Source: Candidatus Scatosoma sp. (GTDB taxonomy: Bacteria > Bacillota > Clostridia > Christensenellales > Borkfalkiaceae). From it: a stretch of 59,497 nucleotides of DNA. Below are positions 1 to 41,766 of the stretch, piece by piece. The notes below the pieces were generated by a model that saw nothing but the letters and a program-made list of their open reading frames with translations, had not been told where the DNA came from and did not search any database. Both the position numbers and the translations under genes were made by a program. The stretch covers positions 1 to 59,497 of the forward strand of contig JAZQWZ010000032.1 in the NCBI GenBank assembly GCA_045632625.1. The letters are read 5' to 3'. Position 1 is the first letter of the stretch, and each line of letters begins with the position of its first letter.

Positions 1-2
1 TG

Positions 3-8486: not shown

Positions 8487-8498
8487 TTGTTTAGTACT

Positions 8499-8645: not shown

Positions 8646-8693
8646 GAAATAGGCGTCCGCGAACAAGGCGTTTCTTTTACATTTCTCGCCACG

Positions 8694-26023: not shown

Positions 26024-26151
26024 GCATAAACACGTCAAATATACAAAAAAATCGGGCATTTATGCGTTTATTTTGCATAATTACCCGATTTTGGTGCGGT
26101 CGACAGGAATTGAACCCAAGTAACAATCGCGGAAACCCTTTATTTATAAGG
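26024..26151 (-). repeat. att-like pseudo-tRNA block, copy 2 (left border of element B)
   Basis: The 91-bp segment 26024-26114 nearly matches 37763-37853 (about 3 mismatches) and ends in the 23-mer (26092-26114). N22 follows, then the 15-mer core (26137-26151). Confidence 0.8.
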
Positions 26152-26285
26152 GATTCAGGCACTTCTTGCCCAAACATACACCAATTTGATTTGATTTCGT
26201 TATGTGGAAAGTATACTATGAATAAAGCGGTTTATGGCTTACTGAATTATTTTTCAGTAAAACTTTATTCAAAGACTTTTTCCAA

Positions 26286-27710
26286 TTATGCTTTTATAAA
26301 CCTTTGATAAGCACTCTTTGGCTTATCGGGAATTGTTAATTTCAATTTGCCAGAATCAAGCAAAGGCTGTACGATTTGTGACATCACATAGTTTTTCGAT
26401 TTACCAACAAACGCAGTCAATTCATCTCTGGAACGAGGAATGGCACAAAATTCTACGATGGATTCGGAAATAGACATATTATTCAAGTAATAGCTATTTT
26501 TCATTACAACCTTAAATTCGCCGTGTAAAACAGAGAATACGGGAGCAGGTAAACTAGCATCTAAAAACTCCTTACGCATAGTAGGAATACCCGAATAACG
26601 ATTTTCCGTTACCTTTAATAATTCCAGCATATTTGCAAGAGCTGCGTTGCGCGTTTCGGGGTGTACTTTACCAAGAGCGTCAATAGTAATTTTACCATAT
26701 AAACCACCGCTATTGGTAATTTCCATTCTATCACGGTACATTTCAATTCTAATGGGAACATTTTCCGTATGCTTGCTATAATCTCTATGCACGAGCGCAT
26801 TTAAAATCGCTTCGCGGACGGCTTTAATAGGATATTCAGGTTTATCAACTCGACGGCCGTTTTCATCAATTATTGTTTTAATTCTACTATTTTTTCGAAC
26901 AAATTCGACAGCTTCTTCCAACATATCAGGAATAGCCCCTGTAATACGTTTATTGTCAATAAAGCGCTCACCTTCGCTACCAACCGTACCGTGTTCAACC
27001 CCAGGTAAGCATACCGCGGTAATGCACAGTTGAGGGAAATAGGTTTGTGGATATTTTGAAAACGTCATCACGCCCGCAAGGGTAGGCGTTCCGTTTTTCG
27101 TGATAGCCATCAACTCTAAAATTTCATTTTCGGATACGCTGTTGGCTAAATTCTTTCTTTCAATCTTTACAGCAGTTAAATATGCATCCAATCTTTGTAA
27201 ATCAAATAATTGAATTCCAGCTTCTTCTACAACGCGAATATCATCACGCGTTCTTTTTCTAAAAGCGTCATAGCTATAGATTTCATATTCACTCATCAAC
27301 TCGTCAGATTCTCCAACGCGAATATACGAGCCTTTAATTCTACCGACGCCTTTATAAAAAACAGGACGTTCGGATATATCAATCGCTGGTATTTCCGCAG
27401 AAACTATCAATTTACCGTCGATATCGCAAACAGTAAAAAGGGCTCTTACCGCAGGCTCCATTTGCTTGCATTGTTCGGTTACTTTTTTTTGTAGATCTTG
27501 CGCATCATAAACGCCTTTTATTGTGTAACCATCCGTTTCATCTATCCCAAATATGATAATACCACCTTCATCTTGATTAGAAAACGAAGATAACGTATCA
27601 AAAAGTTTTGTAGGGCAGCCTTGCGCCGCCGTTTTTAATTCGATGCTTTGCGTTTCTGTTTTTTGATGTTGTATTTCATACACTAATTTTTTTAAATCTT
27701 CGGCTTGCAT
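26286..27710 (-). CDS. Schlafen/AlbA_2-domain ATP-binding protein (AlbA_2 + HATPase_c_4-like + C-terminal wHTH)
   Basis: N-terminal ..TETQSIELKTAAQGCP..EGGIIIFGIDE.. matches the AlbA_2 pattern. This 474-aa architecture is commonly annotated as a putative DNA-binding/ATP-binding protein. Confidence 0.6.
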   Translation of the reverse strand: MQAEDLKKLVYEIQHQKTETQSIELKTAAQGCPTKLFDTLSSFSNQDEGGIIIFGIDETDGYTIKGVYDAQDLQKKVTEQCKQMEPAVRALFTVCDIDGKLIVSAEIPAIDISERPVFYKGVGRIKGSYIRVGESDELMSEYEIYSYDAFRKRTRDDIRVVEEAGIQLFDLQRLDAYLTAVKIERKNLANSVSENEILELMAITKNGTPTLAGVMTFSKYPQTYFPQLCITAVCLPGVEHGTVGSEGERFIDNKRITGAIPDMLEEAVEFVRKNSRIKTIIDENGRRVDKPEYPIKAVREAILNALVHRDYSKHTENVPIRIEMYRDRMEITNSGGLYGKITIDALGKVHPETRNAALANMLELLKVTENRYSGIPTMRKEFLDASLPAPVFSVLHGEFKVVMKNSYYLNNMSISESIVEFCAIPRSRDELTAFVGKSKNYVMSQIVQPLLDSGKLKLTIPDKPKSAYQRFIKA

Positions 27711-27782
27711 AACAACACCTCCTTGTCCAATTATATGTGAATTATAGCAAATAAATAATATTTTGTCAATACAATTTTATAA

Positions 27783-27873
27783 GAATTAACGATATTTATA
27801 AAAAATTAACGATAAAAATAGAAGAATTAACGATTTTATAAAAAGAATTAACACTAAAATAGAAGAATTAACG
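27783..27873. repeat. Iteron-like array: five (a/g)aattaac(g/a)(a/c) repeats at 20-21-bp spacing
   Basis: The copies are gaattaacga at 27783, aaattaacga at 27803, gaattaacga at 27824, gaattaacac at 27845 and gaattaacga at 27864. Confidence 0.75.
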
Positions 27874-28051
27874 ATGATAATCTAAAATTTAACTTCTATA
27901 TTTAAAGTTATTCGGCTAATTCTATAAAAATTTTTACTCGGTTAAATCCGACTAATCTAATTCCGAGTAAAACAAATTAAAAATGGCTGCAAAGTTGCCT
28001 GTAAATAGAAGAAAAAATCACTCAAAAAAATTCAATTTTTTCTATTTGAGA

Positions 28052-28118
28052 TTGGGGTGTGCCCTTACATGTATACAAGCGGCGGCGCGTTGCGCCGCCG
28101 TGTAAGGGCACACCCCAA
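28052..28118. other. Nested GC-rich palindrome (18-bp outer arms plus 9-bp inner hairpin)
   Basis: ttggggtgtgcccttaca (28052-28069) pairs with tgtaagggcacaccccaa (28101-28118). The inner hairpin is cggcggcgc-gtt-gcgccgccg (28080-28100). Confidence 0.8.
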
Positions 28119-28150
28119 CAAACTTAACTAAATCGGTCAAAAGAATTGAA

Positions 28151-28213
28151 ACGGCAAAGGAACGCCCATCGCCGCTGATCCGCTTGGCGATTGGGCGTTA
28201 TTCCATTTTGCCG
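28151..28213 (-). terminator. Long imperfect hairpin just downstream of the Rep stop (terminator or origin element)
   Basis: acggcaaa..aacgcccatcgcc (28151-28173) pairs with ggcgattgggcgtt..ttttgccgt (28187-28213). Confidence 0.35.
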
Positions 28214-28246
28214 TGATTTTTCAATAACGACCTTTTGGCTATCACT

Positions 28247-29347
28247 TTAGTTACAAGTTGTTACTTGGGAAAGCACCTTATACACTTTGCCTTTGTCAAG
28301 CTTTATTATTTCGCCGTATTCCGTAACGATCTCCGCTTCATCCGACACGAGAAAGGACGTTTCATCCTCATTCGTCGGTCCTAATATATCTTTTTTTCTG
28401 ACTGCACACTTTATAAAGGTTGGAATATTCTTCGACCACATCGCTTTTCCGCCTTTATCCATATATTTCCCTATGTAATCATACGCACTTTGGCTTAATT
28501 GCGGTATAATTTCTTCTATCGTCGATAAGCCGAACTTTTCGTTGAACTCCTGATTCCGCGTATGCACTTCCATTTGTTTCGTCATTGGATTATATTTCCG
28601 TTCTTCAAAGTTTTTCGACAATATTTCTTCGTCCTCGATGAACATTAAAGCGTGGAAGTGCAGTCGAACGCTTCCGTCCCAGCCCTCCCATACACCGAAA
28701 TATTTCCAACCCTTTCTATTTACCTTATTCCGTAAATACGTGCGTAGCTTCTTTTTAAACTGCTCCGACGTCATTTTTGCATCGTCATAGGTGAAGGTAA
28801 CGAAATAATTCATACCATTGAGCGAACACTTTCTAATAAAACGGTTTTTTCTCGCATTAAAATTATGGCGTTTGCGCTTAAAGTTTTCTTGCAGGAATTC
28901 TTTCCGTTTTGCTCGGTCGGGGATATACGGCGCAAACTTATCCATCATAATCGCCCAACGCTTTTTCCAACTTTCCTTTGCATATGCGTCGTAATAATGA
29001 TTGAATAGCTCCCGAAGTGTCATTTTAACCGTTTTATTGGGCTTATTTTGAACGTCTTTGACAACTTCAACTACTTGTTCGCCTTGGCAATTATCCTCGT
29101 TATTATGCCCAATTTCAACGGTATATTCTTCTATGATAATTCCGTCGTCATCTTCTTCGTTTATCTTCTCGGATATTAAATCGGAAACGTCTACGTCTAC
29201 GCGCTTTTCGGGGATTTTTCTGCGCTTCTTACCCTTGGGGAGATTTTGCTCCTCAAAGAACCAATGAATTTCACCGCCGTCGTTTGTCAGCTTGCCAAAA
29301 AGATATTCGTCTTCGTCCATTTCTGCAAATGGCTTTTTAATTTTCAT
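28247..29347 (-). CDS. HUH-superfamily rolling-circle replication initiator (two-tyrosine, phiX174 gpA/Microviridae-like motif set)
   Basis: Motif 1 YFVTFTYD, motif 2 LHFHALMF (HUH), motif 3 YDYIGKYMDK (YxxKY, compare phiX174 YVAKYVNK). GGAGG RBS. Confidence 0.75.
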   Translation of the reverse strand: MKIKKPFAEMDEDEYLFGKLTNDGGEIHWFFEEQNLPKGKKRRKIPEKRVDVDVSDLISEKINEEDDDGIIIEEYTVEIGHNNEDNCQGEQVVEVVKDVQNKPNKTVKMTLRELFNHYYDAYAKESWKKRWAIMMDKFAPYIPDRAKRKEFLQENFKRKRHNFNARKNRFIRKCSLNGMNYFVTFTYDDAKMTSEQFKKKLRTYLRNKVNRKGWKYFGVWEGWDGSVRLHFHALMFIEDEEILSKNFEERKYNPMTKQMEVHTRNQEFNEKFGLSTIEEIIPQLSQSAYDYIGKYMDKGGKAMWSKNIPTFIKCAVRKKDILGPTNEDETSFLVSDEAEIVTEYGEIIKLDKGKVYKVLSQVTTCN

Positions 29348-29400
29348 AATACTACCTCCAAAATGTTTATTGTAGGGGTATTATAACAAAAATTTTATAG

Positions 29401-29422
29401 CCTGTCTAAGACGAATTTTGTC
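29401..29422 (-). promoter_or_regulatory. 22-nt promoter-associated box upstream of Rep (shared with the integrase)
   Basis: On the minus strand, gacaaaattcgtcTTAGACagg is followed 18 nt later by TATAAT. It matches 36186-36207 at 21 of 22 positions. Confidence 0.55.
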
Positions 29423-29481
29423 GTATTGGTAGGGAAGAAAAAGGGCAGTACTACGCATTTCAACGCATACCTGCCCTATAG

Positions 29482-29946
29482 TTATTCCGTTTTATTCTGC
29501 ATTTCTTGAACCATATTATCAATGTCTTCTTCGGCAGTACAATCCACCAAGCCATTCATAATTTTAAGGAATTCGTCCAAATCGATTTTGCCTTTTTTCT
29601 TGCAATGCATTAAGCGGCGGAGATAATCTTGACGCTCGTTAAAGCTCTTTAAGGCAAGGAAGAACTCTTCGCCATTCCAATCCATTTCGCCAAACTTTTG
29701 TAAGCGCGTTTGAAAATCAGAATCACGGTATTTTGCGAAGATATATGTACGCGCAACCGTTTGCATTAAATTGCGTTTTTCGTGTTCTATAAGCTCAGGA
29801 AATGTCATTTCGCGTATATCAAGGATTTCTTCGCCTTCATCCTCAGCCGCATCATAAATATGTTGGATATCTTCCGTATCCGCAATAAATTCAAAAGTGG
29901 TATTATCTTCATCGGTTTTATATTTTGCCGTTACTTTGTAATACAT
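29482..29946 (-). CDS. Hypothetical acidic protein
   Basis: 154 aa and rich in D/E. The start overlaps the end of the XRE gene by 16 nt. GGAGGAC RBS. Confidence 0.55.
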   Translation of the reverse strand: MYYKVTAKYKTDEDNTTFEFIADTEDIQHIYDAAEDEGEEILDIREMTFPELIEHEKRNLMQTVARTYIFAKYRDSDFQTRLQKFGEMDWNGEEFFLALKSFNERQDYLRRLMHCKKKGKIDLDEFLKIMNGLVDCTAEEDIDNMVQEMQNKTE

Positions 29947-30179
29947 AATTTCCCGTCCTCCACGTTTTCAATAAACAAATTTACCGCATCTAATTCTAAA
30001 ACGGTTGCGATTTCTTGCGCAATGTTGATATTTTTTACGCCTTGATTTACCCAACGGCTTACGTTACGAAGAGGTGTACCAAACACGTAAGAAAATTCTT
30101 CCTGCGTTCTATATTGCGATAAGTGGATGGCTCTTTTCACGTTTGCGCCAACGACTTCGCTTAACAATTTTTGCTCCAT
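29931..30179 (-). CDS. XRE-family HTH transcriptional regulator
   Basis: ..VGANVKRAIHLSQYRTQEEFSYVFGTPLRNVSRWVNQ.. is the HTH_3 pattern. The second ATG (30179) is preferred because GGAGG lies 6 nt upstream. The ORF could instead start at 30191. Confidence 0.75.
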   Translation of the reverse strand: MEQKLLSEVVGANVKRAIHLSQYRTQEEFSYVFGTPLRNVSRWVNQGVKNINIAQEIATVLELDAVNLFIENVEDGKLCITK

Positions 30180-30214
30180 TTGTGCCTCCATAATCTTATT
30201 TTATATGTATAAAT

Positions 30215-30230
30215 ACGAACATATGTTTGT
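30215..30230. promoter_or_regulatory. Near-palindromic operator candidate overlapping the XRE promoter
   Basis: acgaacatatgtttgt matches its reverse complement at 14 of 16 positions (7 of 8 base pairs between the half-sites). It lies immediately downstream of a minus-strand TATAAT (30239-30234). Confidence 0.35.
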
Positions 30231-30393
30231 TTTATTATACTATAAATTGGAAACATTGTCAAGTGTAAGGGATATAAGTTTCGTGAAAACAAACACTTAT
30301 TTCAAGAAGTTTTGTCGTTTTTTGTAAAAAAGAGGTTTCGCATACATTTTACGCGTAACCTCTTTTGATATACAAAAGCAATTTTAGACGGCT

Positions 30394-31710
30394 TTAAAAG
30401 ACCATTTCAAATGCTTTATAAATCTCTTCATTATCTAAGCCAATTCTCTTAAATAACGCCACATAAATCAAAACAACCATGCTATATGATGTATCAGCAA
30501 TTCGGGGAGTCAATTTTGGTTTTTCGCCATGCGTAACATCATTTCTACATTTGACAAATTTTTGTATTAAATCTTCCGTGATTTCAAGATTTTTATGGGA
30601 TAATATTCTATCAACCACTTCTTTGTTTGCTTCATATAATACGAAAAATTGTTCAGCCGCAGGGAATGTCCATTTTGAAATGCTTCCCACGATAGATTGA
30701 TACGCTTTTTCTGTTAAAGCAGGAGTCTCTTCTTTGTATTCTTTAACAACTTTCTTCACTTTTTTAATAAGCTTTGTGATAATTTCTTCTTTTTCTTTTT
30801 TTATCTTACTTTTAGCAAATTCAAATTCAAGGGCTGTACAAATGTTTTTTATTGAGTTATATGTAACATAATGAGCGTCTGTATTATTATCTGGCAAAAA
30901 GTTTGTAGAAAAATCCTCAGAATCTATTATTTCAATGAATTTCGAAAAAACTCTATCTACGGAACGTAGAGAAATTGTTCTTATTGGTTTCTTATCAACG
31001 ATATCTTTAAAGCCGTGGTTTACATAGATATTTGCATATCCTTTATGAGCTTCGTCCTTAAAATAATATACGATTTTATCAAATTCGATATTTTGCTGCC
31101 TTACCAATAAGGCTACTATTTTTGTTAATAGAAAATAGCATTCTTCAAATCTTTTTAAAGGTTGTTCATTTTCGAATTTTAAAGATATAACCGAATTTGT
31201 TACCCCCAACTTATTATCTTTTCTTTCTGAATAAGGGAAAATACTACTTTTGAAAATACACTGAGTGCCACCAACGCTTACATTATATTTTTTAGTTACT
31301 TCCTTTAACGGTTTAAATTTAATGCAACAACCCTTTTCATACATATTGTCTTCAAACTCAAAAGGAGGATATATTAGCTCTGGATCCAAAATACAATTAC
31401 CCGTACCACCAATAAATTCTATGGAGTCAAATTTTGATAAATCATAATTTCTTAGATTAGCAGAACCAACGGCATAATAATCCACCGAAAATCTAATACA
31501 ATTTATAACCTTTGTTGAGTTTTTTATATGTAATGCTATATTATAATTATTATCAGTAACTCCATATAAGATATCAGGCAATTTAACTTTTTCACTAAAC
31601 CGAAAACCTGACACTCCATTAAATATCCTTCCGATAAATCCGTCTAACGTAAAAGCGTATCGTTTTTCTTGTAATGTTATATAGCCATATATTTTTTCGG
31701 GATGATTCAT
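30394..31710 (-). CDS. HEPN-motif protein (ApeA/Abi-like single-gene defence candidate)
   Basis: 438 aa. The C-terminal alpha-helical region carries KCRNDVTHG, which fits the R-N-x3-H HEPN signature. It has its own transcription unit. Confidence 0.45.
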   Translation of the reverse strand: MNHPEKIYGYITLQEKRYAFTLDGFIGRIFNGVSGFRFSEKVKLPDILYGVTDNNYNIALHIKNSTKVINCIRFSVDYYAVGSANLRNYDLSKFDSIEFIGGTGNCILDPELIYPPFEFEDNMYEKGCCIKFKPLKEVTKKYNVSVGGTQCIFKSSIFPYSERKDNKLGVTNSVISLKFENEQPLKRFEECYFLLTKIVALLVRQQNIEFDKIVYYFKDEAHKGYANIYVNHGFKDIVDKKPIRTISLRSVDRVFSKFIEIIDSEDFSTNFLPDNNTDAHYVTYNSIKNICTALEFEFAKSKIKKEKEEIITKLIKKVKKVVKEYKEETPALTEKAYQSIVGSISKWTFPAAEQFFVLYEANKEVVDRILSHKNLEITEDLIQKFVKCRNDVTHGEKPKLTPRIADTSYSMVVLIYVALFKRIGLDNEEIYKAFEMVF

Positions 31711-31921
31711 AGTCTCACCGTTGTTATTTTACTGTTTCTTTGAGGGGAATGGTTCCGACAATTTCTTACGGACGTATGCGTATAGTAATTTCGCAAAAGC
31801 AACTACAATGGACATTCTGCTTATAAGCAGGGCCTAATTTTCCATTGCATTGAGAAAATCGCTATATTTTCAACAGCTTTTGTCCCCATAAATTATTTTC
31901 AATTATCATCATAAAGGAGTT

Positions 31922-32512
31922 TTAAGATATATTAGTGGAAAATTCTGTGGCAAGTTGTTCACTTAATTCCGACAATGACTTTATAAGACCAAGATTACTA
32001 TATTCAAAGTTTTGAGTCAAACTATCCCATTGCATAAAGCCAAGGCAATGCTCCTTGAGGTCATTGCCAACTACAGTTTTTATGTGTGATAAATGTTCCT
32101 CGGTCGAAAGTATCTGAGATAATCTTGGACTGGAGCCATTATCTATGTTAACAAGCAGTCCATACTTTGCGCCCGAAACAAGACAGTAACCAACAAGTTG
32201 AGACCATTCTTTCAATCCAGCACTATTCATTAGTTTTACTTCAAGAATGAGTATTTCAAACTTTATACCATCCGTAATAAGCGCAAAAATATCAAGATTT
32301 AACGGCGGTACACGTTGAGCAAAATTTGTTGCACATTTGCATTGTTCGGGATTTGCGCTAATAATACGTTGCAAATTAGTCTTCAATTCGCCTATACCCC
32401 AAAACACCTCAAGTTCTCTGTGTTGTTGCGCTCTAAAATTACTTTTTAACTGTGCTTCAATAAAACGCTGTATTTCTGGATAATATGAGACCTCGTTACG
32501 TTTAATCGCCAC
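31922..32512 (-). CDS. Small PD-(D/E)xK nuclease-fold protein (Shedu/NucS-like core motifs)
   Basis: ..LNLDIFALITDG..FEILILEVKLMN..EWSQLVGY.. gives D...ExK...Q. GTG start at 32512 with GGAGGA upstream. It overlaps the upstream gene by 11 nt. Confidence 0.55.
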   Translation of the reverse strand: MAIKRNEVSYYPEIQRFIEAQLKSNFRAQQHRELEVFWGIGELKTNLQRIISANPEQCKCATNFAQRVPPLNLDIFALITDGIKFEILILEVKLMNSAGLKEWSQLVGYCLVSGAKYGLLVNIDNGSSPRLSQILSTEEHLSHIKTVVGNDLKEHCLGFMQWDSLTQNFEYSNLGLIKSLSELSEQLATEFSTNIS

Positions 32513-33893
32513 TTCTTAAGTCCTCCTCTGTAATTTGGCGAACCAACAATTTATATTCGTTCGATAAATCACGAGTAACAAGTCGACTATACACAGCAGG
32601 ATTTTTAGCACCAATTAAAGAACCTCTCTCATTACCAAGTATAACGAGTGGCGTTAAAAGTTCAGGCTTACGAATCTCAACTGTTTCCTCGGGATTATTT
32701 GATATATGACTCTCAATTACAGCAGTATATCCTTTGGGACGCTTGCCAAATAGTTCATTATCATTAGCAATTACATAAGCAATGGCTTGAAGAACCTCCG
32801 CAATAGGATAACCATTATGTTGATTGCTTCCATAAATAAGCGCATTATTGTCGTTTTTGTATAAAGTATACAATGCTGCAATAGAGATGTTTTGAATAGA
32901 GTACGTCCTTGCAGATAATAAGGGGTCGTTTGCGATAATAGAAGTTATACGTTCCTTCGTTTCCTTGCATAATATAGGAAAAGGATTAACTAAATCGCCA
33001 AGATTTCTGAAACAATTACAAACTTTATCATAAGGAGCATGTTCACAACCCATTACGGCGCAAAAATGTCGAAAGTGGATATAATGTCCCCCGCGAATGT
33101 TATCAGGTAACCGCAAATCGTTTTCAGCAGGATGTACCGTAGAAGGAGTTACATGAAAATCACGTTCTTCACATATTTCGGCTGTATGAGTCTGTTGTTG
33201 TAATTGGCGGTTCTCATTCGATGTTTCGGCTTTTGTACGAAAAGCAAAAGCACCAAATTGTGCGTATTGGTCAAGTAAAATTCGAAGCTTAAATCCTTTG
33301 TTCCATTGGGAATAATATGGATCACTCGTACAATGAATATTGGGGTGATTCCAATTCACTTGATCCGGAATACAATTTATACTATAAAGCAATCTACACA
33401 AGTCGCAAACAAACTGGAAATTATATCCTTTAATTTCAAATGACAGTATTTGATGCTCGTCCGAAAATCTTCTTTGGGATTTTGCCATGCTCCCAATCGT
33501 ATCAGCCAAACCAGCAACAAATCTGCGCTTAAGATTGTCGTCAATTAATTCGGGCACGATTGCATTAATATTTGCAGTGCCACGTATTTCGCCTTCACAC
33601 GTAATGCCATACTGCATTAAATCTTCTTTTACATCAGAGATATCGCCTTCGCATAAAATTGTCCATGTCCCACCAGGAGTAGTTTCATACTGTACAGATA
33701 AATTGTAGACAGCTCGAAACATTTGTCCAACTTTCTGAAGAATATCTCTTGCAATTTGACCAGCTCTTTGCGGATTATCTATATATGAACCCCATTTTTT
33801 GTAAGGTAAACGAATCCTAAATACATCTTCCGCTGTTCCAAATATGCCACCGCCAATCATTAATCCAAGAAGGTAGGCTTTATCCGTATTCAT
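32502..33893 (-). CDS. Degenerate double-LAGLIDADG-like protein with an uncharacterised C-terminal half
   Basis: The start is trimmed to MNTDKAYLLGLMIGGG (ATG 33893, AAGGAGG upstream). The second motif RRFVAGLADTIGS lies ~118 aa later. Both lack the acidic residue at the catalytic position. Confidence 0.45.
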   Translation of the reverse strand: MNTDKAYLLGLMIGGGIFGTAEDVFRIRLPYKKWGSYIDNPQRAGQIARDILQKVGQMFRAVYNLSVQYETTPGGTWTILCEGDISDVKEDLMQYGITCEGEIRGTANINAIVPELIDDNLKRRFVAGLADTIGSMAKSQRRFSDEHQILSFEIKGYNFQFVCDLCRLLYSINCIPDQVNWNHPNIHCTSDPYYSQWNKGFKLRILLDQYAQFGAFAFRTKAETSNENRQLQQQTHTAEICEERDFHVTPSTVHPAENDLRLPDNIRGGHYIHFRHFCAVMGCEHAPYDKVCNCFRNLGDLVNPFPILCKETKERITSIIANDPLLSARTYSIQNISIAALYTLYKNDNNALIYGSNQHNGYPIAEVLQAIAYVIANDNELFGKRPKGYTAVIESHISNNPEETVEIRKPELLTPLVILGNERGSLIGAKNPAVYSRLVTRDLSNEYKLLVRQITEEDLRSGD

Positions 33894-33903
33894 AAAAGCC
33901 TCC

Positions 33904-35178
33904 TTAATTGTTAGATTGAATAAATACTTGTTCCATAATTGCAGTAGCAATATTATATGCCAAATTAACAGGAACAGCGTTGCCAATTACTTTATACATA
34001 GCAGTGATATTTTTGGGAGAATCGGTTATGAATTTGAAGTCATCAGGAAAGGTTTGAATACGTGCAACTTCTCGCACTGTATATCTCCTGTTTTCTGTAG
34101 GGTGAATGATGCCGCAATTTTCGGGCTGTGCAGAAGCTGTAATCGTCCCACAAATTTCATCTCTTGAAAAACGTCTATAAAAATTAGGGGAATGATATTT
34201 TTTCATATCATCTCGGATTTTTTTGAAGCGTGGAGCTAAATGTTCGTACGGAACATCCTTCCAAGAGCCTCCTTCAGGAATATATTGAATCATTTCCAAT
34301 GCCTGCGGAGAAAAAGGCCAATCCACATTGTTGTCAAGCTCCACAGGAACATCTAAAATATTTCGTAATGTTAATTTTTCTTTGCTTTGTTTTTCAGGGA
34401 ACACAAATGTCTTCTCTAAATCTTTACGTATCCCAATAAAGAGGACTCGTTGACGATTTTGAGGAACGCCATAGTCGGCAGCATTAACAAGTTGGTATAC
34501 TACATTATATCCAATACCATTCATAGCGGATAAATCCTCAACAATTACATCCGCCAAATTTCTACCGTCTATATATTTAGTCGATAATAAACCCTTAACG
34601 TTCTCAAATACAATAACCTTAGGCATTTTGCGCTCAATAATACGCAAACATTCTTTGTATAACATTCCACGAGAATCATGTACGCCTTTGCGACTTCCCG
34701 CATTAGAGAAGGGCTGGCAAGGAAAACCCGCTGTTAAAATGTCCCCATCGGGAATCTCTTCTTCTCCAACAGTCAAAATATCGCGAGTATCAATTTTTCC
34801 TAAATTAAGAGAATATACGGCTTGAGCATCTGCATCAAAGTCATTTGCGTAAACAATATCAAAGCCAGCTTTTTTGAAACCAGTATCCATACCTCCGCAA
34901 CCAGAAAAAAGTGAAATGAGCTTAGGCGAATTAGAATTATTTTCGCTCAAACACAAAGAAGAGCTTTCAATTGGTTGATTTGCCGCGCTTATTGTAGTTG
35001 ATTTGGAATTTGATGTTGCAGTAATATAACTTTCAATATCACAAAGCCTAATTCTCCAGGAACGATTGGCTAATTTGGAAGCTTGTAAACGTCCATCAGT
35101 AATTAGGCGACGTACCGTTTTTTCGGATAATTGTAAATATTCAGCCGTCTGCGAAACAGTTAATAAATCAGTGTTCAT
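33904..35178 (-). CDS. DNA (cytosine-5)-methyltransferase with N-terminal MerR/excisionase-type HTH
   Basis: HTH LLTVSQTAEYLQLSEKTVRRLITDGRL, then motifs I LFSGCGG, IV GFPCQPFS, VI ENVKGL, VIII QNRQRV and X GNAVP. The start is trimmed to MNTDLL (ATG 35178, GGAGG upstream). Confidence 0.88.
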   Translation of the reverse strand: MNTDLLTVSQTAEYLQLSEKTVRRLITDGRLQASKLANRSWRIRLCDIESYITATSNSKSTTISAANQPIESSSLCLSENNSNSPKLISLFSGCGGMDTGFKKAGFDIVYANDFDADAQAVYSLNLGKIDTRDILTVGEEEIPDGDILTAGFPCQPFSNAGSRKGVHDSRGMLYKECLRIIERKMPKVIVFENVKGLLSTKYIDGRNLADVIVEDLSAMNGIGYNVVYQLVNAADYGVPQNRQRVLFIGIRKDLEKTFVFPEKQSKEKLTLRNILDVPVELDNNVDWPFSPQALEMIQYIPEGGSWKDVPYEHLAPRFKKIRDDMKKYHSPNFYRRFSRDEICGTITASAQPENCGIIHPTENRRYTVREVARIQTFPDDFKFITDSPKNITAMYKVIGNAVPVNLAYNIATAIMEQVFIQSNN

Positions 35179-35351
35179 AAAATTTAGACCTCCCATTGTG
35201 TATATATTATAGCATTTCGTATAGAGTCTGTCAAGCAATTTGTGGAAAGTATTGGACAAAATAGGACTAAATTAAATATACGCTTTTTTGGATGCGATTT
35301 TAGTATTGTTATCATGTATACCCGATTTTACCTTTCGGTTGTGGCTATGGT

Positions 35352-35496
35352 AGCATAGGATAACCCGAAAGTAAACGCAAAAAAATTCTTGCGTTTTTAT
35401 CAATTGTTGCTTTATCCGAGCAACAATTTTTTTCGTTTCTCGTTGACTTTCGGGAAGATTTCAACTCGTACATGGTATTCCTCTTTATCCTATGCT
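35352..35496 (+). promoter_or_regulatory. Long-hairpin element, copy 1 (structured leader / ssDNA-promoter-like element upstream of the sigma-like gene)
   Basis: Stem A is 35352-35362 with 35486-35496 (11 bp). Stem B is 35364-35377 with 35441-35454 (14 bp, one A-G mismatch). Two internal terminator-like hairpins include aattgttgc/gcaacaatt plus a T7 run (35402-35433). Confidence 0.55.
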
Positions 35497-35545
35497 CCTT
35501 TGCCCCTGCCCAAAAGGCAAAAGATAAAATCGGAGGTAAACTCAA

Positions 35546-36157
35546 ATGCTTAAATCTCACAATCCTTACAACGTGTTATCGGAAATCATCTCTTTCGAGA
35601 ACGTTCAACAAATGGGCGAAATGATCGCCCTGAAAACTCTGCGTGGTCGTTACGCTTACGCTCGTTATGCCTTGGAATGGCTCTACGTTGGTCTTGTAAA
35701 AGATTTAAACCGTGGCAACGACGCTCATCACATATTTTCAGACGCTTATGACCTTGCACAAACTGCTATTTGCTTCTTATGCGAATTTGTAGGTAAGAGC
35801 TTAAACGACGTTTATATGATTAAAAACGGTCAAGAAATCACCATTAAGAAAGCTACGTATTTGTTAGTTGGTCGCACTATTGATAGAATGCGTAGATACA
35901 TGTCAAGAAGCCGTGATATTAACGATTACACGGAAGAACTCTCTGTGGAAATCGACCACTACGAAGAAAAAGATTATACCGAAGTGGATAACAAAATCGA
36001 ACTTCTTAATTTGAAACCTCGTGACCGCGCTGTATTAGATTGCTATATGGCAGGTATGACTTGCAACGAAATTGCAGAATTCCTCGACATCGACCGTATT
36101 ACCGTATGGCGTAGAAGAACGCGTGCACAGGTAAAATATAAAGCATTATTTTTCTAA
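35546..36157 (+). CDS. Sigma-70-family-like factor (region 4 HTH), mobile-element type
   Basis: C-terminal ..LKPRDRAVLDCYMAGMTCNEIAEFLDIDRITVWRRRTRA.. is the region 4.2 pattern. GGAGG RBS. Confidence 0.65.
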   Translation: MLKSHNPYNVLSEIISFENVQQMGEMIALKTLRGRYAYARYALEWLYVGLVKDLNRGNDAHHIFSDAYDLAQTAICFLCEFVGKSLNDVYMIKNGQEITIKKATYLLVGRTIDRMRRYMSRSRDINDYTEELSVEIDHYEEKDYTEVDNKIELLNLKPRDRAVLDCYMAGMTCNEIAEFLDIDRITVWRRRTRAQVKYKALFF

Positions 36158-36185
36158 AATTAAGTAGTACGCCAAAATTTGTCTT

Positions 36186-36207
36186 AGACAAAACTCGTCT
36201 TAGACAG
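36186..36207 (+). promoter_or_regulatory. 22-nt promoter-associated box upstream of integrase B
   Basis: gacaaaactcgtcTTAGACagg is followed 18 nt later by TACTAT. gtcttagaca occurs twice (36181-36190 and 36197-36206). Confidence 0.5.
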
Positions 36208-36353
36208 GCGTTTAAAAATATGATACTATACTTACGCTCTCAAGGACAAACTATACTTTTACAGCTTGGGAGTTAGCAAGAAAATTAGGTAAAAGTAAAC
36301 GCGTTTATGCTTCCCGACGGGGAAGTTGACCAAAATTTTCAAGAAGGAGGACA

Positions 36354-37568
36354 ATGACAACCGCTGAATTAAAAATTACATCAAATTACATCCAAGCACT
36401 CGCATCGCAGCCTGATGCAACCGAACGCATTTCTCTATTTTTAAGCGGTCTTTTGGCTATGCAGCCGAAGGACAAATTAAACGCGCCTAAAAAGAAGAAA
36501 AAATGCGTTTCAACGTTAATTCATTTTACACAAAAGGAGATTTCTAAAATGGCAAAAACATTTAAGAAAGAGTTCATTGGAAACGGCTTAGCCGCGCACG
36601 TCTTAAAGCGTGATTTGTACAAAAAAGCCGTGTACTACATTATTCGTTACCGCCGTAACGGATATGAAATCCAAGTGGGCGCAACCACGTTGGAAGAGGC
36701 TAAGGAAAAATTCCTTGAAGCAACCAGAGCGGAAAATATTGAAAAATACCGCAAAAAGGAAAAGCGTGCCAAGAAAAATACTTTCCTGTTTGTAACCCAA
36801 GAGTGGTTAGAGTTCAAGAAAGATAAATTGAACGCGCGCACGCATAAGAATTATGAGAGCTACTGTCAAAGATATTTATATCCCGTTTTGGGTGATATGG
36901 ATATTTCCGTTATCAAGACCATCGACATCAACGGCATTATGACAAAAGTCGAAGGGCGTGTATATGAAGATTTGCGCGTAGTTCTCAATTCGGTATTCAA
37001 ATACGCACTCGCAAGCGGTGTGATTACTCACAATCCTATGCTTTTAATTCCCTTCAAAAAAGCGGAAAGAAACAACCGCCGCGCTATGACGGAAGACGAA
37101 GTCAAGAAGATGATAGAACGCTTGAATACGGACGAATACAGCGATTATAAGCGCACGTTTTTGATTTTGTTATTCTTCGGGCTTCGTCCTTGCGAATTGG
37201 AAGATGCTCGATTTGAAGGCGATTTCTTGATTGCACGGAATGCCAAGCGAAAAGGCGGTAAAATTGAGTATAAAAAGATACCCATTTGCAAGCAAGCACG
37301 TGAAATGTTGGACTTGGATGCGCCCGTGGAAGCTTTACATAGAACGGACGTATTGAACCGCATTTTTAAGCGAATTATGGAAGACGAAGAAGTTACGCAA
37401 TACTTCCTGCGCCATACGTTTGCAACCATTTGTCAACAATACGTTCGCCCTGACATTGTGGATATTTGGATGGGTGACAGCTCTGAAAGATTGGTTGGAA
37501 GAGTATATACACACTTCCCCGATAAATTTATGATTGAGCAAATGCAAAACGTCATCTTTGACATTTAA
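36354..37568 (+). CDS. Tyrosine recombinase/integrase (copy B)
   Basis: ..YFLRHTFATICQQYVRPDIVDIWMGDSSERLVGRVYTHF.. The N-terminus MTTAELKITSNYIQALAS is nearly identical to copy A. GGAGGAC RBS. Confidence 0.9.
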   Translation: MTTAELKITSNYIQALASQPDATERISLFLSGLLAMQPKDKLNAPKKKKKCVSTLIHFTQKEISKMAKTFKKEFIGNGLAAHVLKRDLYKKAVYYIIRYRRNGYEIQVGATTLEEAKEKFLEATRAENIEKYRKKEKRAKKNTFLFVTQEWLEFKKDKLNARTHKNYESYCQRYLYPVLGDMDISVIKTIDINGIMTKVEGRVYEDLRVVLNSVFKYALASGVITHNPMLLIPFKKAERNNRRAMTEDEVKKMIERLNTDEYSDYKRTFLILLFFGLRPCELEDARFEGDFLIARNAKRKGGKIEYKKIPICKQAREMLDLDAPVEALHRTDVLNRIFKRIMEDEEVTQYFLRHTFATICQQYVRPDIVDIWMGDSSERLVGRVYTHFPDKFMIEQMQNVIFDI

Positions 37569-37576
37569 AAGTAAAA

Positions 37577-37609
37577 ATACCGCTGGGTTTTATTCCCGGC
37601 GGTATTTTA
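37577..37609 (+). terminator. Rho-independent terminator after integrase B
   Basis: taccgctggg pairs with cccggcggta (9 of 10), followed by tttt. Confidence 0.5.
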
Positions 37610-37670
37610 ATGCTCTCCAAAAGCAATCCAAGTCGATTTAATTTTCATTAAAAAAATGTAAACGTCAAAA

Positions 37671-37685
37671 CCTTTATTTATAAGG
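37671..37685 (-). repeat. Extra copy of the 15-nt core cctttatttataagg (integrase-proximal)
   Basis: Exact 15-mer located 100 nt after the integrase B stop. It is not followed by the 23-mer block. Confidence 0.6.
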
Positions 37686-37762
37686 GGATAAAACGAACGG
37701 AAACATTGCCCAAAACATACACCAATCGTTGCGATTTTCGTGAAAAACGGCGGTTTTGCTGT

Positions 37763-37890
37763 GCATAAACACGTCAAATATACAAAAAAATCGGGCAAAT
37801 ATGCGTTTATTTTGCACAATTACCCGATTTTGGTGCGGTCGACAGGAATTGAAGCGGTTTCCACTTTGCTGAAAACCTTTATTTATAAGG
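37763..37890 (-). repeat. att-like pseudo-tRNA block, copy 3 (right border of element B)
   Basis: 91-bp repeat 37763-37853 ending in the 23-mer (37831-37853), then N22, then the 15-mer core (37876-37890). Confidence 0.8.
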
Positions 37891-38043
37891 GATTCAGCCA
37901 TCTGCCCCCGAAATGCCCCCAAGTAAAAACGTGATTTTTGCAATAGAAAAATGTAGCATTTTTTGTGGCAAAATTTGCCCCGAATAATCGACAGGTCAAA
38001 CACTAAACAATCGAACCTACCTTTTTTTAACTCGAAAAACTGC

Positions 38044-38136: not shown

Positions 38137-41100
38137 CTATATTTTTTTAATTTTTACTTGATGCTTATACTTAGTAATTTTAAATATTCCATGCCTTTCA
38201 AACAGATTTAGAATTTTTGTATCATATTCTTTCATTGGAACTTTAATTTCCAGTTGTGTTTCCAATGAAGCCACTTTGGGCACCGCTTGTTTTAAGTAAC
38301 TGAAAACTTTTGACTTGTCTATGTCGTTCCCATATACATCCAACAAATCTATTTTTATTCCAGAATCCATACTACTTGAAAGTAAAATATTCAATAACCG
38401 TTCGCAACATCTTTCAATTTTATTTTTGATGATGATTTTACTGATATGCTCTTTAAGCGTATCGGTGCTCGGCGTATACGTTTGCTGCATCTTATAAATA
38501 AGCTTTGCCTTTATTTCATTCGACAAATCCTGATTATTCAACAGCAAATCCATAATATTATTCGCAAACGTTGTACCATTCATTTCTTCTATAACGTCGG
38601 GAGCTTTTAAGAGAATGGGAATTAGAACTTTGATTGTAGACTTCGCTAAAACCAGATTTTCTACATTCGCTTCTATAACACAGTTATTAACTAAAATCGC
38701 CGCGATTTCATCTCTCGTTATTTCATTTGCTTTTAATTTTACCGCGAATCCTTTTGAGTATATAGAGAAACCAGTCAAGTCGGTAAAAGAAACTTCATTG
38801 CAAAGCAACAATTCAATATCCTTATCCTCTAATGCGTCCGCACTCAATATTTGTGCATTTCGATCAAGATAGGTAAGAATTGATTGTAATGTAATATATT
38901 TCTTCTTTTTAGACATTACGACATTTGCCCATGTGGGATAAATTTTATCTTGTTCATAGGCATACAATAACAATTCCTTATCTATCCCCTCATAAACGTC
39001 AAAGGTCGTTTTTAAGTTGGAAACAAATTTTTTATGCTCGCTAAGTGGCAATGTTTTATTCTTTAAAATCCATTCGATGCCTATTTGTTCTTCCTCACAA
39101 ATACTTACATTAGACGCATATTCATTTATAATGGTCTGATGATTTGCTTCAACGTAAGCAATAAAAGTAGGATTGTTTGTTTTTAAAACATACGACAATA
39201 CAGCCTTTTGACAATTTTCAAAATTATAATGACTGTGCAAAATAAATTCTAGATTTTTTAGACTTATTTCATACAAATCATTCTTTATTAATTCATCCAT
39301 TACGTATTGAGCTATATGATCATTATTCATACCCTCGTGGCTTACAGTAATTAATTGCACGCTTAATTTTTGTAAAACATCAACAAATAGATCTACATCA
39401 GCATGAATATAGGCAAACATACCAATCGCATTTGGATGTTTTGATAAATATTGCGTTAATACATTTTCTTGATTTTGTCTGATAAATAGCTCAATATCGC
39501 CATACGCAAACAATGCGGACAATAAGCGATCTTTTTGTTCTGGAGACATAGATTCATCCAATAATATATCCCGACAAAAACAATCATAGTCAGGTAAAAT
39601 TTGATTGAATAAGACCGTAAATTCTTGTTGATCGCTTAAGTACTGTTTCCAAAAGCCAATAACTTCAGGGCTTCTTGACGTTAAATAATGCTTTAAACTT
39701 TTTTGTTTCTGTTTGACTTCTTCGTCATTCGTTTTGGCGTTTAATGTTGCTTCAATTAGACTGTAATTAAAAATAAACCTATCCGAAAATCTTTCTTGAG
39801 AAATTTCTCGCATTACCAGTTCAGGTTTTTCCAAGCTTTGCATCACATCTATTGGCTGTTTTTCCAATACTTTTCTCACGAACGCCTGATCTCGTGCTGA
39901 AATTAAGTCATCTTCTTTACTAACAATGTAATCTTTATATGTTTCATCTATATAACCATTAGCTAATAAAAAGCGTTTTAACTCCCCTTGTATGTCCGTT
40001 GACTGTTCCAACGTTAAATATTCGCTCATGGTGTAATTGCGACACTGCCGAATTTGTTGTTGTAAACCATCAATTTCTAACTGCAGTTGTTTTTGCTTGC
40101 TCTCTGATTGATCTTGAATACGCTGTTCTATATCGACAACGTTTTCCCCAAGATCTTCATCAATCTGCCACATCTCAGCATACCAATGATAATTCCCATG
40201 ATAAACAATACGCCCTGTGACCCCTTCAAAACTTTTCAACTGAGACACATCCGTCCCATGATAATTCCCTAATTGATATCGAGTCACCATACAGCCTATT
40301 ACTGCTTTCCGTAAAAGCTCAAAAGAATGAATAGCCGCTTGTTTCGCCTCTAATTTTTTATTGTTTAAGGCTGCTATTTTTTCCTCTTTTTGTTTGATTA
40401 AATCAACGACATAGCTGTGTTTACTTTCAAACGCATCGGCTAAATCTCCTTTTCCATATTGCAACTCGGCAAAATCCGCTGGATGCAGATTTTTATAAAC
40501 CATCAATGAAAACAATTTAATATTCTTCTGAGAATCGGAAAGCCTCCAAAGCTTTAAAAGGTGATAATACGTAACATAATCATTGACTATATTCTTTAAT
40601 ACACGCATTTCTGTAATAAAATGAGAAACTTCGTGTATATACAGCTCCGGCAATTCCATTTCTTTGGAACATGTAGACTCTAATTCTTTTTTCAGCATAC
40701 CACGCACATTTGTAAAACTTAAAACAGGAATCAAAGACAAAATATAATCAAAAAATTTCGCCCTGTCGTTTTCAGTTCTAAAAAGATCGTCTTTTATTGC
40801 GTAAACAAACGTTACTTTTTGTTTTACAAGTTGGCTGTTATTAATTAAAAAATTCAATTCGCGTAATTTGGAAAAAATACTCGTATTATTAAACCGGTCC
40901 AAATCCTCAATCACAACCACCTGAACTTTTGTTTTTTGAAAATAATAAATGATCTCGTCAATAAATGTATTTAAAACAGAACCCGAGGTTAATTCACAAA
41001 ATTCCGCCTGAATATCTTTTACCGCGATTTTATTAATTTTATTATTATAAAACATTAAATATATAAAAAGTAATGCTGTAGTTGCAGCACAGCCAGAAAA

Positions 41101-41634
41101 TATATAAAAATTAGAGCCGTTAGAATTGGGAAGCAACTTAAAAAATTCCAATATAGCACAACCAATCAATGCAATCGTAGCAATTAAATAGAGCGCCAAG
41201 CGAAATGAAAGCCATCCATGGCTTGTATTAATACGATTAATCTTAGAATACGGAACTTTATTCTTACCAACCTTATAAAGGAATTGTTCCAAAATGCTTT
41301 TTTCTACAGCACAATCAATATCTTGCACCCCACCATGCTTGGAATCGCTTGGCTGCTCTTCGTTAATTGTTTGCGTATCATTAAAATTAGCCAATGATAT
41401 CTTCGTTAATTTAGTATCCTTACATAACAGTCTTTTATGATATTTATGCTGATACGTTTTGATTAAACTGCTTTTGCCCGCACCATACGCTCCAATTACG
41501 CCTATATTGCAAACATCTTTATCTTGAATTTTTTCATGTAAAATATCCGCATAAACCCCATATTTCTGCTCATCTATTACCGGACTATTTGATACCAATT
41601 TTAATGATGTAGAATTTACTTTAAATCTCTTCAT
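38137..41634 (-). CDS. KAP-family / YobI-like P-loop NTPase with transmembrane insertion
   Basis: The start is trimmed to MKRFKVNS (ATG 41634, GAGGAGA upstream). Walker A GAYGAGKSS. Two hydrophobic helices (WLSFRLALYLIATIALIGCAIL, FYIFSGCAATTALLFIYLMFY) sit between the Walker motifs. Walker B VVVIEDLDRF. 1,165 aa. Confidence 0.75.
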   Translation of the reverse strand: MKRFKVNSTSLKLVSNSPVIDEQKYGVYADILHEKIQDKDVCNIGVIGAYGAGKSSLIKTYQHKYHKRLLCKDTKLTKISLANFNDTQTINEEQPSDSKHGGVQDIDCAVEKSILEQFLYKVGKNKVPYSKINRINTSHGWLSFRLALYLIATIALIGCAILEFFKLLPNSNGSNFYIFSGCAATTALLFIYLMFYNNKINKIAVKDIQAEFCELTSGSVLNTFIDEIIYYFQKTKVQVVVIEDLDRFNNTSIFSKLRELNFLINNSQLVKQKVTFVYAIKDDLFRTENDRAKFFDYILSLIPVLSFTNVRGMLKKELESTCSKEMELPELYIHEVSHFITEMRVLKNIVNDYVTYYHLLKLWRLSDSQKNIKLFSLMVYKNLHPADFAELQYGKGDLADAFESKHSYVVDLIKQKEEKIAALNNKKLEAKQAAIHSFELLRKAVIGCMVTRYQLGNYHGTDVSQLKSFEGVTGRIVYHGNYHWYAEMWQIDEDLGENVVDIEQRIQDQSESKQKQLQLEIDGLQQQIRQCRNYTMSEYLTLEQSTDIQGELKRFLLANGYIDETYKDYIVSKEDDLISARDQAFVRKVLEKQPIDVMQSLEKPELVMREISQERFSDRFIFNYSLIEATLNAKTNDEEVKQKQKSLKHYLTSRSPEVIGFWKQYLSDQQEFTVLFNQILPDYDCFCRDILLDESMSPEQKDRLLSALFAYGDIELFIRQNQENVLTQYLSKHPNAIGMFAYIHADVDLFVDVLQKLSVQLITVSHEGMNNDHIAQYVMDELIKNDLYEISLKNLEFILHSHYNFENCQKAVLSYVLKTNNPTFIAYVEANHQTIINEYASNVSICEEEQIGIEWILKNKTLPLSEHKKFVSNLKTTFDVYEGIDKELLLYAYEQDKIYPTWANVVMSKKKKYITLQSILTYLDRNAQILSADALEDKDIELLLCNEVSFTDLTGFSIYSKGFAVKLKANEITRDEIAAILVNNCVIEANVENLVLAKSTIKVLIPILLKAPDVIEEMNGTTFANNIMDLLLNNQDLSNEIKAKLIYKMQQTYTPSTDTLKEHISKIIIKNKIERCCERLLNILLSSSMDSGIKIDLLDVYGNDIDKSKVFSYLKQAVPKVASLETQLEIKVPMKEYDTKILNLFERHGIFKITKYKHQVKIKKI

Positions 41635-41766
41635 TTTATTGTTTCTCCTCGACAACCACTTCACATTTGTAGAACAATTTAACATATTTTAAACAACTTG
41701 CATGTCAATAATTAACGCACAAAAATTAAAAAACGTTTATTGACCTCTAGTGTTAGAAACGCTCTT

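Follow-up and report, generated by a model that had tools for sequence, protein, structure and literature searches.

A three-gene operon in the genome of Candidatus Scatosoma sp. (assembly GCA_045632625.1, contig JAZQWZ010000032.1, positions 1 to 59,497; this whole stretch of 59,497 nt is referred to here as the window) most probably encodes a restriction-modification system. Its genes, designated G1, G2 and G3, code for a C5-cytosine DNA methyltransferase fused to a helix-turn-helix (HTH) domain, a protein built on a double LAGLIDADG fold that lacks the canonical catalytic acids, and a small protein bearing a PD-(D/E)xK nuclease motif. The balance of the evidence leans, by no great measure, towards a Type II-like system whose restriction component consists of two proteins. 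It is a more tentative proposal, given a little less than an even chance, that this component forms a new class of restriction enzyme, whereby a dead double-LAGLIDADG reader recruits or licenses a separate small PD-(D/E)xK nuclease. Directly supported are the arrangement of the genes, the LAGLIDADG fold of G2 with its lost acids, the catalytic residues of G3, the linkage of the three genes and the swapping of their methyltransferases. An earlier note, made from the letters of the DNA, had suggested a restriction-modification-like module; the suggestion is supported here, and the outcomes it named as speaking against itself, where checked, were not found: G2 matched no known restriction-enzyme family in the library searches and, with non-acidic residues at its metal-binding positions, is not an active homing endonuclease of the canonical kind, and a methyltransferase accompanies G2 and G3 almost universally elsewhere.

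The three genes lie on the minus strand (31922-35178 among the open reading frames (ORFs) of the window) in the order G1, G2, G3; the coordinates of all features are collected in Table 1. The compact arrangement first described was re-read in the sequence: 10 nt separate G1 from G2, G2 and G3 overlap by 11 nt, and each gene is preceded by a GGAGG-type ribosome-binding site, which reads GGGAGG at 9 nt 5' of the ATG of G1, overlaps the G1 stop codon at the G1/G2 junction (TAAGGAGGcttttATG), and reads GAGGAGG at 9 nt 5' of the GTG of G3. The operon promoter is the sole perfect sigma-70 consensus site in the scanned region 31600-35600. All three are real genes and not chance ORFs, since homologues of G2 and G3 form 643 and 656 clusters, respectively, at 90% identity, almost all of them full length; the two counts are nearly equal.

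The linkage of the trio was followed through one genome per GTDB species, in which 145 relatives of G2 were found. The best 80 loci, all from GTDB species-representative genomes, were analysed together with one metagenome contig, giving 81 non-redundant loci that were compared by tblastn with the three window proteins. G1, G2 and G3 stand intact side by side, in unchanged order and on one strand, in 70 of the 81, the others being cut by contig ends or decayed. Thus, in this group (clade 1), the putative nuclease genes are linked to a methyltransferase across genomes, as in restriction-modification systems. The hosts comprise Firmicutes, Bacteroidota, Proteobacteria, Verrucomicrobia, Melainabacteria, Spirochaetes, Coriobacteriia, bacteria of the candidate phyla radiation (CPR) and two methanogen metagenome-assembled genomes (MAGs), and the trio is 65-80% identical between phyla, which implies that it was transferred horizontally in recent times. 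Cultured carriers include Phascolarctobacterium faecium, Merdibacter massiliensis, Parablautia muri and Syntrophomonas palmitatica. Clustering of the flanking ORFs revealed no fourth conserved gene, the commonest family occurring in 10 of 78 loci; genes of mobile elements, namely TnpV, a large serine recombinase and a MobA/MobL relaxase, recur beside the trio. In plasmid and phage collections there was no close copy of the window G2, and just relatives from a second clade (clade 2) were recovered.

The members of clade 2 have a shorter G2 (~290 aa), which comprises the LAGLIDADG part and the start of a Cys/His-rich region and ends soon after. In the 6.5-kb plasmid p9 of the cultured Lactiplantibacillus plantarum P9 (locus L084, NZ_CP060181) and in a Lachnospiraceae phage, a 700-aa methyltransferase, consisting of an EcoRI-type N6-adenine (N6A) enzyme fused to a C5 enzyme, is followed by the short G2, and a gene of 165-171 aa overlaps the latter. 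From end to end, the product of this gene can be aligned to the G3 profile (hhalign E 9.8e-5), with the D, ExK and Q residues in register. The phage carries, in addition, a separate excisionase-type HTH gene upstream of the methyltransferase. A comparison of 88 clade 2 loci (L084 and L085-L171), drawn from the plasmid, gut phages and metagenome stretches, shows the fused N6A and C5 methyltransferase together with a G3-like gene in 70; a further 12 retain at least the C5 part, most of them being cut by a contig end, and another two are truncated upstream by the end of the contig. Two separate amino-methyltransferases occur instead in two loci (L087 and L088), a gamma-class Eco57I/N6_Mtase enzyme with a TaqI-like specificity domain and a beta-class N6_N4 enzyme. 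In one locus (L091) the fused methyltransferase lies ~1.1 kb upstream of the short G2, with a 358-aa gene inserted between them, and a single exception (L110) has no methyltransferase within 5 kb upstream, the locus ending right after G2. Taken by position, 85 of the 88 loci have a methyltransferase directly upstream. Metagenome matches for clade 2 number more than 542.

The constant element of these loci is the G2-G3 pair, located behind a DNA methyltransferase of whatever chemistry: C5 alone, fused N6A and C5, or an N6A enzyme paired with an N4/N6 enzyme. To keep such a pair while the methyltransferase beside it is exchanged is characteristic of restriction-modification systems. Asymmetric target sites are typically served by double methyltransferases, and a monomeric, pseudo-dimeric LAGLIDADG scaffold would be well suited to such sites. 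Two side observations concern this clade. The 358-aa insert of L091, a viral locus (2868-3944), carries a C-terminal D...IEVKT motif resembling a PD-(D/E)xK site, and a protein of 1082 aa (P0390) joins a C-terminal clade-2-type G2 domain to an N-terminal portion of 880 aa in which no Pfam domain is recognised.

The exchange of methyltransferases bears directly on the idea that the G2-G3 pair serves a purpose other than restriction, such as repair in the manner of Vsr, homing of the cassette, or a methylation-dependent toxin of the mobile element. No phenotype is known for the pair, LAGLIDADG proteins are classically homing factors, and the trio always resides on mobile elements, all of which would suit such a role. 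Nevertheless, the idea is very improbable. The pair also accompanies N6A/N4 methyltransferases, for which the repair of deaminated bases has no relevance. A genuine Vsr mismatch endonuclease (PF03852, 3e-28), an enzyme usual beside active 5-methylcytosine methyltransferases, is encoded downstream and on the same strand in 10 loci, in which an analogue would be redundant; the presence of Vsr in itself favours the restriction-modification reading. As for homing, G2 was not found in an intron, an intein or a fixed homing site; it always stands in the middle of a methyltransferase operon, and the flanking genes vary between loci, leaving no common site.

G1 had been described as an HTH fused to a complete Dcm-type methyltransferase, a description confirmed by its matches to HTH_17 and DNA_methylase in Pfam, to MTase_II in PADLOC (1.6e-101) and to TIGR00675 (dcm) in NCBIfam. 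Its translation contains motifs I (FSGCGG), IV (PCQ), VI (ENV), VIII (QNRQR), IX and X (GNAVP), and therefore the full catalytic set expected of the modification enzyme of such a system. The catalytic core resembles those of M.HaeIII and M.HhaI; the target-recognition region has no characterised match, and no source names a specificity for G1. The HTH itself varies among loci, which fits an optional controller role: it may be a fused HTH_17, a fused XRE-type HTH_3 (in CPR loci), a separate upstream gene (a stand-alone HTH precedes the trio in 5 loci) or, in many loci, missing altogether. In two Saccharibacteria MAGs (L082 and L083) the XRE-type HTH_3 (1.2e-15 in L082) replaces HTH_17 at the N-terminus of the methyltransferase, and a different HTH class has thus been fused independently at the same position. 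The methyltransferase of a Methanimicrococcus MAG (L049) bears a different N-terminal extension, in which Pfam recognises no HTH.

Directly upstream of the -35 element in the window, three boxes follow one another with 10-bp phasing. Among loci whose methyltransferase is fused to HTH_17, 11 of 26 have the pattern GTCC-N6-G[TA]CC, at -91 to -108, versus 1 of 47 non-fused loci (shuffle mean 0.045); several of the 11 (L005, L007-L013, L015, L023 and L072) are near-identical, and the independent observations are fewer than 11. These boxes represent a candidate operator for the fused HTH. In this respect G1 is similar to M.SsoII, M.EcoRII, M.MspI and M.ScrFIA, HTH-fused C5 methyltransferases which autoregulate their restriction-modification systems: it combines an N-terminal HTH with a Dcm-type enzyme and phased boxes beside its own promoter. 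Unlike that group, and unlike the C-protein controllers, its HTH is of the excisionase/MerR-like HTH_17 type, and its DNA binding is putative.

The nuclease signature of the module resides in G3. The clean D...ExK...Q core noticed at the outset proved to be a family trait: in an alignment of 18 members, down to 32% identity, residues E7, D74 (in LDIFAL), E91-x-K93 (in ILEVK) and Q105 (in SQLVGY) are invariant. In the predicted model a helix spans residues 12-30, and strands 72-80 and 85-97 carry D74 and the ExK motif, so that the order (E)...D...(D/E)xK...(Q) is set on an alpha-beta-beta-beta core as in PD-(D/E)xK enzymes. The window protein itself matches Pfam PDDEXK_3 at 16.9 bits (E 0.008), under the 22-bit cut-off, and all 18 diverse members match the same family, the best at 1.3e-5. 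Searches of Pfam, NCBIfam, PADLOC, PHROGs and PDB sequences with G3 otherwise returned just a sub-threshold match to GxxExxY. Since E7, D74, E91, K93 and Q105 are invariant, G3 looks catalytic.

G2 presents the opposite picture at its expected active site. Its two motifs, KAYLLGLMIGGG (aa 5-16) and RRFVAGLADTIGS (aa 123-135), are spaced 118 aa apart, and the double-LAGLIDADG fold guessed from them is borne out by the agreement of the predicted model with Foldseek. Matches in the PDB are to PI-SceI, I-DmoI, I-SceI, I-AniI and WhiA (E 1e-5 to 1e-3, probability 1.0), and those among viral models are to DOD/LAGLIDADG domains (E down to 1.9e-8); all matches are restricted to LAGLIDADG/DOD endonucleases and WhiA. 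The assignment to the fold relies on a model of mean pLDDT (predicted local distance difference test) 75 from a shallow alignment, with values below 50 for most of aa 182-256 and of 88-96 for approximately aa 310-440. At the level of sequence the similarity is hardly detectable: 3 of 47 members match Pfam Hom_end, at E ~0.08, and searches of Pfam, NCBIfam, PADLOC, PHROGs and PDB sequences with single sequences and three profiles gave no match. At position 8, where active LAGLIDADG enzymes carry the metal-binding Asp or Glu, the first motif has Gly15 and the second Ile133, as had been read from the window; this proves general. In clade 1 (47 diverse members aligned, down to 25% identity) and in clade 2 alike, Gly takes this position in motif 1, and one of Ile, Val, Leu, Arg or Thr in motif 2; an acidic residue never does, so that no member examined has the Asp/Glu pair of a homing endonuclease. 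The helix glycines G10 and G128 are conserved, as is the Asp at position 6 of motif 2 (D131). With a LAGLIDADG fold devoid of an acid at either catalytic position in all of these proteins, G2 looks non-catalytic.

Beyond the LAGLIDADG part, the Cys/His region of G2 is conserved in both clades, though without the cysteines in those clade 2 members that come from plasmid and phage. The C-terminal domain, confidently modelled in the window protein, has no match among PDB sequences. Its predicted order, alpha-beta-beta-beta-alpha-beta, was the reason for testing it as a degenerate PD-(D/E)xK partner of G3; hhalign against the G3 profile gave a probability of <1%, and the idea was rejected. A G2 homologue of 522 aa in the archaeal Methanimicrococcus MAG (L049, 5995-7563) is ~60 aa longer than the others and thus contains an insertion.

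One might instead suppose that G2 is active through a non-canonical site, and that G2 and G3 cut one strand each, like the subunits of BspD6I, BtsI and BsrDI. Candidate sites are a D131/E153/D177/H183 cluster in domain 2 and H254-P-x-E257 with the Cys/His region. D131, E153, D177, Q178, H183, K199 and K202 are invariant or nearly so, H183-P184 is invariant in both clades, and the H254/E257/Cys region is conserved and not confidently modelled. Such activity is improbable, however, given that both metal-binding positions of the characterised LAGLIDADG nucleases are occupied by non-acidic residues, that D131 aligns with the non-catalytic position 6, that the middle region matches no nuclease family in Pfam or the PDB, and that the cysteines are dispensed with in the plasmid and phage members of clade 2.

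The relationship between G2 and G3 is closer than that of either with G1. Their reading frames share 11 nt in the window and 4 nt in many of the other loci, and across the 70 intact loci their pairwise distances correlate with r = 0.93, pairwise distances not being independent of one another. The partial correlation of G2 with G3, given G1, is 0.73, compared to 0.33 for both G1-G2 and G1-G3. The overlapping genes and this tighter co-evolution support a functional pair, in which the two proteins may be in contact. The same observations bear on a simpler scheme, in which G3 alone is a conventional homodimeric PD-(D/E)xK restriction enzyme and G2 an accessory, either a WhiA-like regulator of expression timing or a modulator of G3. 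G3 does have all the catalytic motifs and is about as long as small Type IIP enzymes usually are, and WhiA provides a precedent for a dead LAGLIDADG scaffold as a regulator (PMC3384342). Yet intact loci never keep G3 without G2. The latter is larger and more persistent than the other partners, its co-evolution with G3 is far tighter than that with G1, and translational coupling suggests stoichiometric subunits. Many loci, moreover, already have a regulatory HTH, fused or stand-alone, and known controller proteins measure ~80-100 aa, as against 290-463 aa for G2. The simpler scheme is accordingly considered unlikely, though less so than an active G2.

With respect to specificity, the methyltransferases of clade 1 are equally conserved in the target-recognition region (49-86% identity) and the catalytic core (47-90%), and one specificity is therefore probable for the whole clade. 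This agrees with a set of invariant polar and basic residues that G2 displays on the beta-sheet of its second LAGLIDADG domain (R141, S151, E153, D177, Q178, N182, H183, K199, K202 and R204); in homing endonucleases the corresponding beta-sheet is the DNA-contact surface. In clade 2, whose methyltransferases are different, several of these residues, among them Q178 and K202, are changed, and H183-P184 are kept.

These features may be combined into a working mechanism for the two-protein restriction component. G1 would methylate cytosine at C5 within a fixed target and thereby protect the host DNA, and its HTH would probably autoregulate the one strong promoter as a C protein does, repressing it once methyltransferase accumulates. 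G2 and G3, presumably produced by coupled translation, would act jointly on unmethylated DNA: G2, as a monomeric, pseudo-dimeric LAGLIDADG scaffold, would bind DNA by its saddle, recognise the target and position or license G3, which would contribute the PD-(D/E)xK active site and perform the cut. The contact between G2 and G3, the identity of the base-reading subunit, the identity and length of the site, and the restriction phenotype are what we infer in this scheme.

Several points weigh against this mechanism. The model of G2 was built on a shallow alignment, with 20 sequences at >=70% identity, and that of G3 is poor (pLDDT 60), its best Foldseek match being Cas4 at E 0.29, which is not a significant fold match. 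With its 196 aa, G3 could by itself make up a complete homodimeric Type IIP enzyme. Targets of 14-40 bp, as recognised by classical LAGLIDADG proteins, would be awkward for a defence enzyme. Finally, H183-P184, the E/D153 position and W197-K199 of G2 are conserved in both clades despite their different methyltransferases, which points to a generic role for these residues (backbone contact, partner contact or cryptic catalysis) and not to base reading; this conservation also favours G2 as an accessory protein over a pure reader of bases.

The composition of the module shares features with several known systems. In function it comes nearest to two-subunit Type II enzymes that have a large subunit for recognition and a small one of the PD-(D/E)xK type, the Type IIT heterodimers being close as well. 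BspD6I (Nt.BspD6I with ss.BspD6I), BtsI and BsrDI, as well as the Type IIT enzymes BslI, Bpu10I and BbvCI, likewise combine a methyltransferase with two adjacent genes for restriction subunits. As in BspD6I, BtsI and BsrDI, the small PD-(D/E)xK subunit of ~190 aa would depend on a larger DNA-binding partner, and the double methyltransferases of clade 2 recall systems with asymmetric sites. In the established two-subunit Type II enzymes, however, the large subunit or both subunits are PD-(D/E)xK nucleases, whereas G2 has an acid-less LAGLIDADG fold, and searches of Pfam, NCBIfam and PADLOC gave no sequence match to any of these enzyme families. NgoAVII and CglI (M + R + N/H) also place a C5 methyltransferase and two co-operating restriction genes in one operon; they are ATP-dependent and employ a PLD-type nuclease, B3-like DNA-binding domains and a helicase/ATPase, and scans of G2 and G3 with Pfam, PADLOC and NCBIfam gave no such domains and no NTPase motif.

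Two further comparisons concern the fold of G2. Like I-DmoI, PI-SceI, I-SceI and I-AniI, it adopts the LAGLIDADG fold (TM-score with I-DmoI 0.53-0.60, target-normalised, probability 1.0), and unlike these homing endonucleases it has no catalytic Asp/Glu, no intron or intein and no common insertion site. Also close in structure is WhiA/DUF199 (PDB 3hyi and 3hyj; Foldseek E 3e-4), a monomeric double LAGLIDADG fold whose acids are likewise replaced. In Thermotoga maritima WhiA they are replaced by Arg and Gly, and DNA is not cut (PMC3384342); G2 has Gly and Ile or Arg at these places. The inactivated LAGLIDADG domain is thus common to both. WhiA is a chromosomal regulator of Gram-positive bacteria with a C-terminal HTH, whereas G2 has neither an HTH nor a WhiA match in Pfam, and its C-terminal part is alpha/beta or absent, which places it outside that family. 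It possesses instead the Cys/His region and an unrelated alpha/beta domain, and it is located on mobile elements, tied to a methyltransferase and a nuclease.

To our knowledge, surveys of restriction enzymes list PD-(D/E)xK, HNH, GIY-YIG, PLD and half-pipe folds, not LAGLIDADG. Neither G2 nor G3 matches an RE_* family of Pfam or any entry of NCBIfam, PADLOC, PHROGs or the PDB above threshold, REBASE lying outside the search. The earlier note knew of no described system with this composition, and this holds: a LAGLIDADG component in a restriction or defence system is described neither in the literature searched nor in those same libraries, again with REBASE outside the search. The module is hence most likely a restriction-modification system with a restriction architecture that is unprecedented in the comparison made, to which REBASE did not belong. 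Every named homologue of G2 or G3 that was seen is annotated as a hypothetical protein, and no queried defence-finding library detects the module. A 2012 review of the relatives of homing endonucleases counts WhiA as a host protein that is related to the LAGLIDADG fold and is not a nuclease (PMC3384342); should the present reading hold, G2 would constitute a second domestication of this fold, inside a defence system. It would be the first homing-endonuclease fold in restriction-modification and a natural division between reader and cutter, its targets probably asymmetric and possibly long, which has been paired anew with at least three methyltransferase solutions. A separate reader and cutter on a meganuclease scaffold would be of interest to nuclease engineers. 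The module is common (643 G2 clusters, relatives in 145 GTDB species-representative genomes and >542 clade 2 metagenome matches) and is probably a genuine obstacle to gene transfer and to infection by phages in gut bacteria.

Table 1. Position of the operon, its domains and control sites, and of neighbouring features in the window
Feature	Position (nt)	Strand	Description and basis
G1	33904-35178	-	424 aa; ATG at 35178
G1, HTH_17 domain	35017-35166	-	aa 5-54; Pfam 1e-13
G1, C5-cytosine DNA methyltransferase	33934-34923	-	aa 86-415; Pfam DNA_methylase 4e-83
G2	32502-33893	-	463 aa
G2, N-terminal double LAGLIDADG-fold domain without canonical catalytic acids	33249-33893	-	aa 1-215; model, Foldseek and alignment
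G2, middle Cys/His-rich part	32994-33248	-	aa 216-300; C241, H254-P-x-E257, C278, C283; possible zinc site; model of low confidence up to ~aa 260
G2, C-terminal alpha/beta domain	32502-32993	-	aa 301-463; fold family unassigned; confident model; absent in the short-G2 clade
G3	31922-32512	-	196 aa; GTG start, overlapping the G2 stop
Operon promoter, sigma-70 type	35206-35234	-	TTGACA-17 nt-TATAAT with TG extension; 12/12 consensus
Candidate operator	35244-35267	-	GTCC/GTCC/TTCC boxes, 10-bp phasing; directly upstream of the -35 element
Left direct repeat	26024-26185	.	91-nt repeat 26024-26114 matches 37763-37853 at 97%
Right direct repeat	37710-37900	.	adjoins the integrase gene
Tyrosine integrase	36354-37568	+	Phage_int_M and Phage_int_SAM_3
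Sigma/LuxR-type HTH protein	35546-36157		element cargo
Rep protein	28247-29347		Pfam REP_ORF2-G2P
Iteron-like repeats	27778-27900		upstream of the Rep gene; four or more ~20-nt repeats containing AATTAACGAT
Schlafen/AlbA_2-HATPase_c_4 protein	26286-27710		element cargo
HEPN_Apea protein	30394-31710	-	438 aa; C-terminal Apea-like HEPN 1.3e-6; directly downstream of the trio
Tmn-like KAP-type NTPase	38137-41685	-	1182 aa; PADLOC Tmn 3.3e-59; just outside the element
ATPase_2/DUF234 protein	within 38137-43161	-	464 aa; further defence candidate; just outside the element

The trio resides on an integrative element of ~11.7 kb (26024-37900). The earlier note had placed it on a small element of this kind next to a HEPN gene, in agreement with the direct repeats, the integrase and the HEPN domain match found here. 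In addition to the 91-nt repeat, two further blocks match between the ends (26129-26161 with 37868-37900, and 26169-26185 with 37710-37726). The ~20-nt repeats upstream of the Rep gene look like replication-origin iterons. The HEPN_Apea gene was considered as a part of the system and rejected as such: it is missing at all 83 other loci and represents independent cargo. As a KAP NTPase matching Tmn and an ATPase_2/DUF234 protein adjoin the element, the region can be regarded, from its gene content, as a mobile defence island.

A 20-nt sequence, TTGTGGCTATGGTAGCATAG, occurs at 35339-35358 and again, 8 kb away, at 43369-43388, with 95% identity between the copies; one copy is upstream of the sigma/LuxR-type HTH gene of the element, and the sequence may be a shared regulatory site. 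The G+C content falls from ~45-50% (positions 1-9000) to ~31-40% (9000-59497), a shift pointing to horizontal acquisition or a mosaic origin for the greater part of the window. Further along, a 351-aa protein (46339-47394, plus strand) combines a PcfK-like domain with the mismatch-binding MutS domain I, and a PcfJ-like gene adjoins it; this is an unusual fusion on an apparent conjugative element.

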